From contig NW_027266298.1 in the NCBI RefSeq assembly GCF_022045235.1, positions 1,550,001 through 1,614,000 of the forward strand: DNA of 64,000 nt, in the 5' to 3' direction. Source of the stretch: Haliotis cracherodii. Lineage: Eukaryota. The notes under the pieces were generated by a model, which searched no databases, was not told the origin of the DNA, and saw only the letters and a program-made list of their open reading frames with translations. Of this stretch, positions 534 to 580 are shown piece by piece; positions within the stretch are counted from its first letter, which is position 1; each line of letters starts with the position of its first letter. Made by a program: the position numbers and the translations under genes.

Positions 534-580
534 GTCACTACCCACAAAAAAAAACGCTATCACAGTGGTGGGGTAGTGAC
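534..580 (-). other. Conserved 3'-UTR stem-loop (family A)
   Basis: GTCACTACCC(C)AC pairs with GTGGGTAGTGAC around a loop containing CTGTGATA. Confidence 0.75.

Follow-up and report, generated by a model that had tools for sequence, protein, structure and literature searches.

A covarying 3′ hairpin with a candidate miR-2 site in its loop is carried by distant LINE lineages in abalone U2, U1 and tRNA genes

LINE 3′ hairpins are normally taken to be private tags for the element's own reverse transcriptase (RT). Does this hold for the hairpin that precedes the poly(A) tail of each of nine insertions in a U2 snRNA array of the abalone Haliotis cracherodii, or does the host read it? The window, by which we mean the whole 64,000-nucleotide stretch analysed, is part of this array, with eight U2 3′ parts and one 5′ part (Rfam RF00004), and its nine poly(A)-tailed insertions all lie on the minus strand. 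Seven of them (A, B, two copies of C, D and two copies of E) encode ORF1 together with an ORF2 bearing AP endonuclease, RT and zf-RVT domains, and the remaining two, H1 and H2, have ORF1 without ORF2. Eight tails meet U2 at one identical base; the tail of B is instead joined to the 5′ end of H1. After the tail of element A comes the 3′ part of a U2 gene (307..463, minus strand, RF00004), and the same junction is repeated at 19162, 28168, 35044, 41918, 49031, 52151 and 59247 (minus strand). Element A has an ORF2 of 1160 aa (999..4481, minus strand; AP endonuclease, RT and zf-RVT) and an ORF1 remnant (16569-17507) separated from it by nested insertions. The interruption, at 4476-16412, consists of an RNase H-bearing LINE (ORFs 4586-9394) and a BEL/Pao LTR element with 99.7% identical LTRs (10607-10971 and 16048-16412), and this nested block recurs upstream with a 27.7-kb period.

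Judged by their organisation, the window elements are Keno-like LINEs of the Tx1 clade together with ORF1-only derivatives (PMC4640811, PMC4494074). In the accessible portions of these reports, Keno likewise inserts into U2 at a fixed point next to GTATCTG, ends in a poly(A) tail and encodes an ORF2 with AP endonuclease and RT, a likeness by description and not by sequence; the same portions describe no 3′ stem-loop, ORF1-only derivatives or miRNA site for Keno. They give a loss of 38 bp of U2 for Utopia and the same 3′ flank for Keno, and the junction in the window, which falls after 36 nt of U2, may be ~3 nt 5′ of the published Keno site. Named relatives of the ORF2 are few, a limpet protein among them, which agrees with a molluscan host, as does the miR-2 cluster described below.

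The hairpin is one part of a larger conserved 3′ module of ~110 nt, which runs in the order U/C-rich tract, TGTTA, stem-loop, GCRCTGT, TGTA or TGTT, and AATAAA or ATTAAA, with a stem of 11-15 bp and a U-rich loop of 22-28 nt. The hairpin occurs in all nine window elements, with TGTTA ahead of the stem in each. In element A, the module occupies 489..587 (TGTTA 583-587, stem 571-581/533-543, loop 8-mer 558-565, AATAAA 489-494; minus strand). The other modules, also on the minus strand, lie in the ORF1-only element H1 (19163-20978, ORF1 490 aa; module 19195..19299, with ATTAAA), element B (20991-27018, a copy in which neither ORF1 nor ORF2 is intact; module 21011..21106, with AATACA), the autonomous element C copies 1 (28169-33894; module 28189..28284) and 2 (35045-40768; module 35064..35159), element D (41919-47881, ORF2 frameshifted; module 41938..42033), the ORF1-only element H2 (49032-51001, ORF1 482 aa; module 49067..49166, with ATTAAA), and the autonomous element E copies 1 (52152-58097, ORF2 1150 aa; module 52179..52274) and 2 (59248 to past the window end; module 59275..59370). 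The loop motif is found in nine minus-strand copies, at 558-565, 19266-73, 21076-83 (TGTGACA), 28254-61, 35129-36, 42003-10, 49135-42, 52244-51 and 59340-47. The stem arms quoted in the earlier note all lie where it placed them (in A, for example, 534-543 pairs with 571-580), as does its loop motif (C)TGTGATA, with TGTGACA in B, and GCGCTGT follows the stem in all but A. The seven families that it counted amount, in the window, to only about three to four independent stem types, the C, D and E modules being 81-88% identical.

Several lines of evidence confirm that the hairpin is real, with a covarying stem and an invariant loop 7-mer. As the earlier note had described, the stem sequence varies with pairing kept: 8 of 12 pairs are changed on both sides in a MAFFT alignment of eight tails. 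This plain alignment, made up of A-type tails, one U1 ORF1-only tail and H2, gives a covariation score of 0.485 against 0.283 for shuffled versions, a value reached by none of 500 shuffles and by no slid register (≤0.29), although the shuffle control ignores relatedness, so that the result is not a p-value. Fold z-scores range from -1.7 to -4.4 in 20/20 tails. A covariance model, which the earlier note had proposed, was trained on the same eight alignment rows and found 9/9 window copies (E 4e-21 to 6e-7); of its 53 matches, spread over 41 sources, 49 are true modules, cleanly separated from the background (28.8 vs 15.6 bits). TGTGATA is retained in 46 of these 49, and the three loop deviants are all in copies with broken frames. 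In the U2 stretches read (463 kb of C35 and 140 kb of C5), inserted junctions number 36 and intact U2 sites 110. The hairpin is visible by eye at every inserted junction, with TGTGATA in 32 loops, TGTGACA in three (B copies) and TGGGATA in one. Between sister families (10 pairs), the module is 75-95% identical, compared with 42-66% for the 100 nt upstream. When modules A and C were searched against Rfam, as the earlier note also suggested, nothing credible came up at E values as high as 10.

The earlier note took the hairpin for an ORF2p recognition signal that allows ORF1-only elements to be mobilised in trans, and part of that reading stands. In the accessible portions of the reports on stringent LINE tails (UnaL2, ZfL2-1/2, PMC4176376; monocot L1/SINE, PMC3472496, PMC3747384), these tails likewise have a variable, compensated stem and a fixed loop, with the hairpin near the 3′ end and a tail common to non-autonomous partners. 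The ORF1-only elements H4, H5 and H6 have only the last ~105-150 nt in common with the autonomous elements B-E, at 83-92% identity, which is what stringent recognition predicts, as in SINE/LINE pairs. A tail in common with the presumed mobilising LINE is seen in H4-H6 but not in H1, H1b, H2 and H3, and the U1 ORF1-only elements do not share the tail of the U1 autonomous copies. Other results go against cognate specificity. Autonomous Tx1-like families occupy U1 and U4 genes (C32 1.97-2.03 Mb, C6 9.28-9.40 Mb, C51, and C34 17.60-17.69 Mb), and the U1 family has a long stem of its own around a ~75-nt loop near the 3′ end. The ORF2ps of these families are 42% identical to that of the U2 family, and the module is absent from 6/6 U1 and 4/4 U4 autonomous-type tails.

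The module is nevertheless present in U1 genes, on seven insertions of which six could be delimited as ORF1-only elements of 1.47-1.78 kb at the autonomous-type U1 site. Their ORF1s nest inside the U2 ORF1-only clade (support 98/95 within 99/99), and their tails show a clear likeness to U1 autonomous tails, by eye, only in the last ~18 nt. When the genome was searched with the U1 ORF1-only tail, none of the 10 matches fell on a U1 element with ORF2; the assembly may have missed an autonomous U1-targeting element with the module. The ORF1-only elements resemble HAL1, an ORF1-only non-autonomous LINE derivative, in their length of 1.5-2 kb, their intact ORF1 and poly(A) tail, and their lack of ORF2. 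Unlike HAL1, they are target-specific, their tails appear to be swapped, and one lineage appears to have moved from U2 to U1. The ORF1s of H1-H6 and of the U1 solo elements are longer (400-523 aa) and carry diverse additional domains at the C-terminus. The families appear to have exchanged N-termini, C-termini and tails, H1 for instance combining an H4/H6-like N-terminus with an H1b/H2-like C-terminus.

The module also reaches more distant LINEs. A pattern search gave 150 matches against 76 in the control, and among the matches listed was a dispersed module-bearing family; a tighter pattern gave 39 matches against none in the control, 32 of them of a dispersed tRNA-targeting type. These carriers are autonomous LINEs with ORF2ps of 1296 and 1322 aa, which are 63% identical to each other and ~30% identical to that of the U2 family. 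Their junctions fall at the D-loop 3′ end of an intact neighbour copy in 17 of 19 cases. The intact LINEs form two families inside tRNA genes of at least nine anticodon types (C1, C2, C3, C7, C13, C23, C27 and C34; L166-L185), and we found no account of such intragenic tRNA targeting in the literature searched. The modules of the two families are 95% identical to each other and show 63-71% similarity to the U2/U1 modules, while the ORF1ps of module carriers have ~20% identity across lineages. An approximately unbiased (AU) test rejects a single clade of module-bearing RTs (p=0.0004); the tree has 17 rows, without P0120, P0098, U1_auto2, U2_B and the outgroup, and is unrooted because the outgroup branch is very long when rooted on a distant LINE, so that the test does not distinguish gain from loss. 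This distribution over U2, U1 and tRNA carriers indicates that the module follows neither target, ORF2p lineage nor ORF1p lineage. The tail therefore does not appear specific to its own ORF2p lineage, being found on ~30%-identity tRNA LINEs and missing from the 42%-identity U1/U4 LINEs. The module would have been either swapped between lineages or repeatedly lost, and the similarity between tRNA-element and U2/U1 modules favours swapping.

The loop itself points to a reader in the host. Its 8-mer in element A, CUGUGAUA (558..565, minus strand), is a K box and complements nucleotides 1-8 of host miR-2 exactly; the H1 loop, UUGUGAUA, is a 7mer-A1-type site, and the B loop reads CUGUGACA. The host genome has a miR-2 cluster with four Rfam mir-2 hairpins above cut-off, and six arms in the ~3-kb locus have at their start a sequence exactly complementary to the loop 8-mer. 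The site is on the sense strand of the element 3′ UTR. Among 13 stem types, t1-t7 are invariant in all 13, so the invariant core corresponds to miR-2 positions 1-7; t8 is C in 10 and U in three, t9 is only A or U, and the base immediately 3′ of the site (t0) takes all four letters. The A at t1 and the A or U at t9 fit miRNA site rules. The 8-mer is predicted to be open in 21/21 tails, requiring 0.1-2.8 kcal/mol to unpair compared with 5-17 kcal/mol for the stem arm. According to the accessible portions of the source papers, the K box UGUGAUA is the top-scoring conserved 3′ UTR k-mer in fly and CUGUGAU that in worm, both being miR-2 sites (PMC1309705); miR-2 is specific to invertebrates, matures from the 3′ arm and is high in fly and worm heads and neurons (PMC3384581), and oysters have a six-copy miR-2 cluster (PMC4138081). 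The abalone loop is like the K-box sites described there and in PMC4238352, again as far as the accessible portions go, in its 7-8 nt, its sense 3′ UTR position, the host-encoded miRNA and the link to HES genes, but differs in that it is on retrotransposons, within the loop of a conserved stem, and that repression is predicted only.

The idea of a miR-2 site arose post hoc, and we estimated how readily it could be a coincidence. From k-mer frequencies, a chance match has a probability of ~1e-4 per 7-mer and ~2e-5 per 8-mer; with ~80 conserved miRNA families and ~4 conserved blocks taken into account, the chance probability becomes roughly 0.6-3%. In host HES-family matches, the sense 8-mer lies within 800 nt of the stop codon in 8/17, against 1/17 for the antisense 8-mer and ~0.3 expected. 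For the 7-mer, the contrast shrinks to 9 vs 5 of 17 genes, so that the control is weak there, and a single tandem cluster supplies six of the eight 8-mer cases. Some features speak against a miR-2 site. No consistent 3′-supplementary pairing to miR-2 was found, and outside the seed, C at t11 (11/13 stem types) and A at t12 (10/13) are partly conserved, which seed pairing does not predict. Single 8-mer sites usually repress only modestly, which makes the strict invariance of the loop surprising. The TGTTA flank is as invariant as the loop (13/13 stem types) and is no miR-2 site, so some protein reader probably exists, and it could read the loop too; a dual role as miRNA site and protein target is possible.

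Because the tail is found on distant families and its loop equals a miR-2 site, it is likely to be read by the host rather than to be a private tag of the copying enzyme. The explanation we favour, in which we place about as much belief as doubt, is that it is a portable host-read 3′ module, combining a miR-2 site with poly(A) signals, that likely damps element RNA in the soma. On this view, Argonaute loaded with miR-2 would occupy the open loop and keep element RNA low in those somatic cells, probably neural ones, that are rich in miR-2. The stem would serve to keep the site unpaired, ~70-80 nt ahead of the poly(A) signal, and the downstream TGTA and AATAAA/ATTAAA would direct 3′-end cleavage, through the CFIm/CPSF roles of such motifs. 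The module may have passed between lineages by 3′-end recombination or template switching, and a relaxed ORF2p could prime on the poly(A) end of such RNAs, in which case ORF1-only elements would use whichever ORF2p cuts their target and could change donor. The element might benefit by restraining itself in the soma, or by having its RNA sorted into RNP granules through Argonaute. More tentatively still, we propose that a 3′ module displaying a miRNA site is traded, as a selected miR-2 switch, among retrotransposons whose lineages are ~30% identical in protein sequence and which use three kinds of RNA gene as targets.

The main rival, which we consider less likely, is a generic protein signal. 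The stem, loop and UGU-rich flanks would be bound by the ORF2p of several lineages, by their zinc-knuckle ORF1p or by both, so that the RNA is packaged and target-primed reverse transcription begins, and the identity with the K box would be coincidental. Precedents exist, in the portions of the reports available, in zebrafish L2 LINEs, where the stem is exchangeable and the loop essential (PMC4176376), and in a monocot L1 lineage with compensatory stems and fixed loop bases (PMC3472496). The ~125-nt tails that H4-H6 have in common with B-E, the presence of the hairpin at 36/36 inserted junctions in the U2 stretches read, and the invariance of several non-miRNA blocks also speak for such a signal. 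However, known stringent tails are cognate-specific, as far as the accessible part of PMC4176376 reports, whereas the tail studied here occurs with ORF2ps that are ~30% identical, with ORF1ps that are ~20% identical and at three targets, and has a 22-28-nt U-rich loop equal to a host miRNA site. The module is also missing from the closer relatives in U1 and U4, its ORF1-only carriers in U1 genes occupy the insertion site of an ORF2p that is encoded by RNA without the module, and a generic signal needs the exact miR-2 match to be a coincidence of ~1-3%.

A clearly less probable alternative is a host RNA-binding-protein or 3′-processing/localisation element not read by a miRNA, in which the 5′ UGUUA and the UGAUA of the loop may form a pseudoknot. 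PUF- or CELF-type proteins read UGU, four blocks around the stem ahead of the poly(A) signal start with UGU, and portability across lineages would suit any host reader. UGUUA and UGAUA can form 5 bp at a spacing held to 18-23 nt, and the U-to-C change in B would turn a G-U into a G-C pair; however, the 5-bp helix would contain two G-U pairs with no consistent extension by eye, and the sole supporting change is in broken copies. Such an element also leaves unexplained the seed match and the invariant A opposite miRNA position 1. We retain both this alternative and the generic protein signal since TGTTA is as invariant as the loop. That the loop UGAUA instead pairs with TATCA of the U2 target DNA or RNA just downstream of the insertion site, and so guides insertion, finds some encouragement in 5-6 nt of complementarity to U2 right after the junction but can practically be discarded, given the identical loop on insertions in U1 and in tRNA genes of at least nine anticodon types, and the lack of the 7-mer up to 600 nt before the junction at 14 of 14 metagenome U2-junction loci.

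These 14 loci come from a metagenome scan for U2 junctions that gave 20 loci, seven with ORF2 similarity; the remaining six were set aside by eye as one duplicate record and five short or doubtful junctions. The covariance model found no match in the six metagenome loci given to it. Scans of viral contigs found no ORF2 relative and 12 pattern matches, all without the module stem, and a scan of prokaryote genomes gave only two weak matches. Among other known motifs, a Roquin CDE was rejected by inspection for want of a consistent triloop stem, a pri-miRNA UGUG motif because the stem is too short, and an ENE triple helix because there is no two-sided U-rich internal loop. Pairing of the loop with a downstream CUGUC is broken in B and D, a splice acceptor ahead of the module has no conserved AG, and the TGTGATA of the U4 family is inside ORF2 and has no hairpin.

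Hairpin tails, Keno and K boxes are each already known. Here, one tail is common to distant LINE lineages and displays the miR-2 site that ranks first among 3′ UTR k-mers in fly and worm. The literature searched, which left out most subscription papers and Repbase reports, yielded no retrotransposon with a conserved miR-2 site and no covarying tail across Tx1-like lineages, and the latter would be of interest even if the miR-2 match were due to chance. If the proposal is correct, selection would have made a transposon retain a host miRNA site, as a miR-2 switch by which the element is restrained (or licensed) according to tissue. Whether transposons restrain themselves in the soma, or make positive use of Argonaute, could then be tested directly. 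An ORF1-only parasite would have changed its target from U2 to U1 through a new ORF2p donor while keeping its tail, and the elements would provide a natural series (autonomous and ORF1-only; U2, U1 and tRNA targets) for how ORF2ps of the L1/Tx1 type choose RNA in trans.

Some further observations concern the wider set of elements. A decayed module copy with an ORF1 remnant lies at C6:8875747-8875816 (L180:1241-1320) and is followed by a short A tract; the sequence after it has no Rfam match and is possibly a fourth target. Contigs from a related organism contain a U1-type tail with the same loop motif, a loose end that we record as a lead only. The 5′ ends of all eight elements that have one in the window carry a pyrimidine tract ending in YAG and then a conserved GTCTAC, upstream of ORF1 (17883, 20923, 26899, 33764, 40639, 47761, 50864 and 57962, minus strand), and the U1 and U4 families also have this arrangement. 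The YAG-ending tract resembles a splice acceptor, and transcripts from the snRNA promoter might be spliced there, although no donor is defined. Interruptions in the A tails at the junctions are G in the U2 elements, and C or GC in the U1 elements; these are the first bases of the respective targets, which suggests read-through into the target and re-polyadenylation there.
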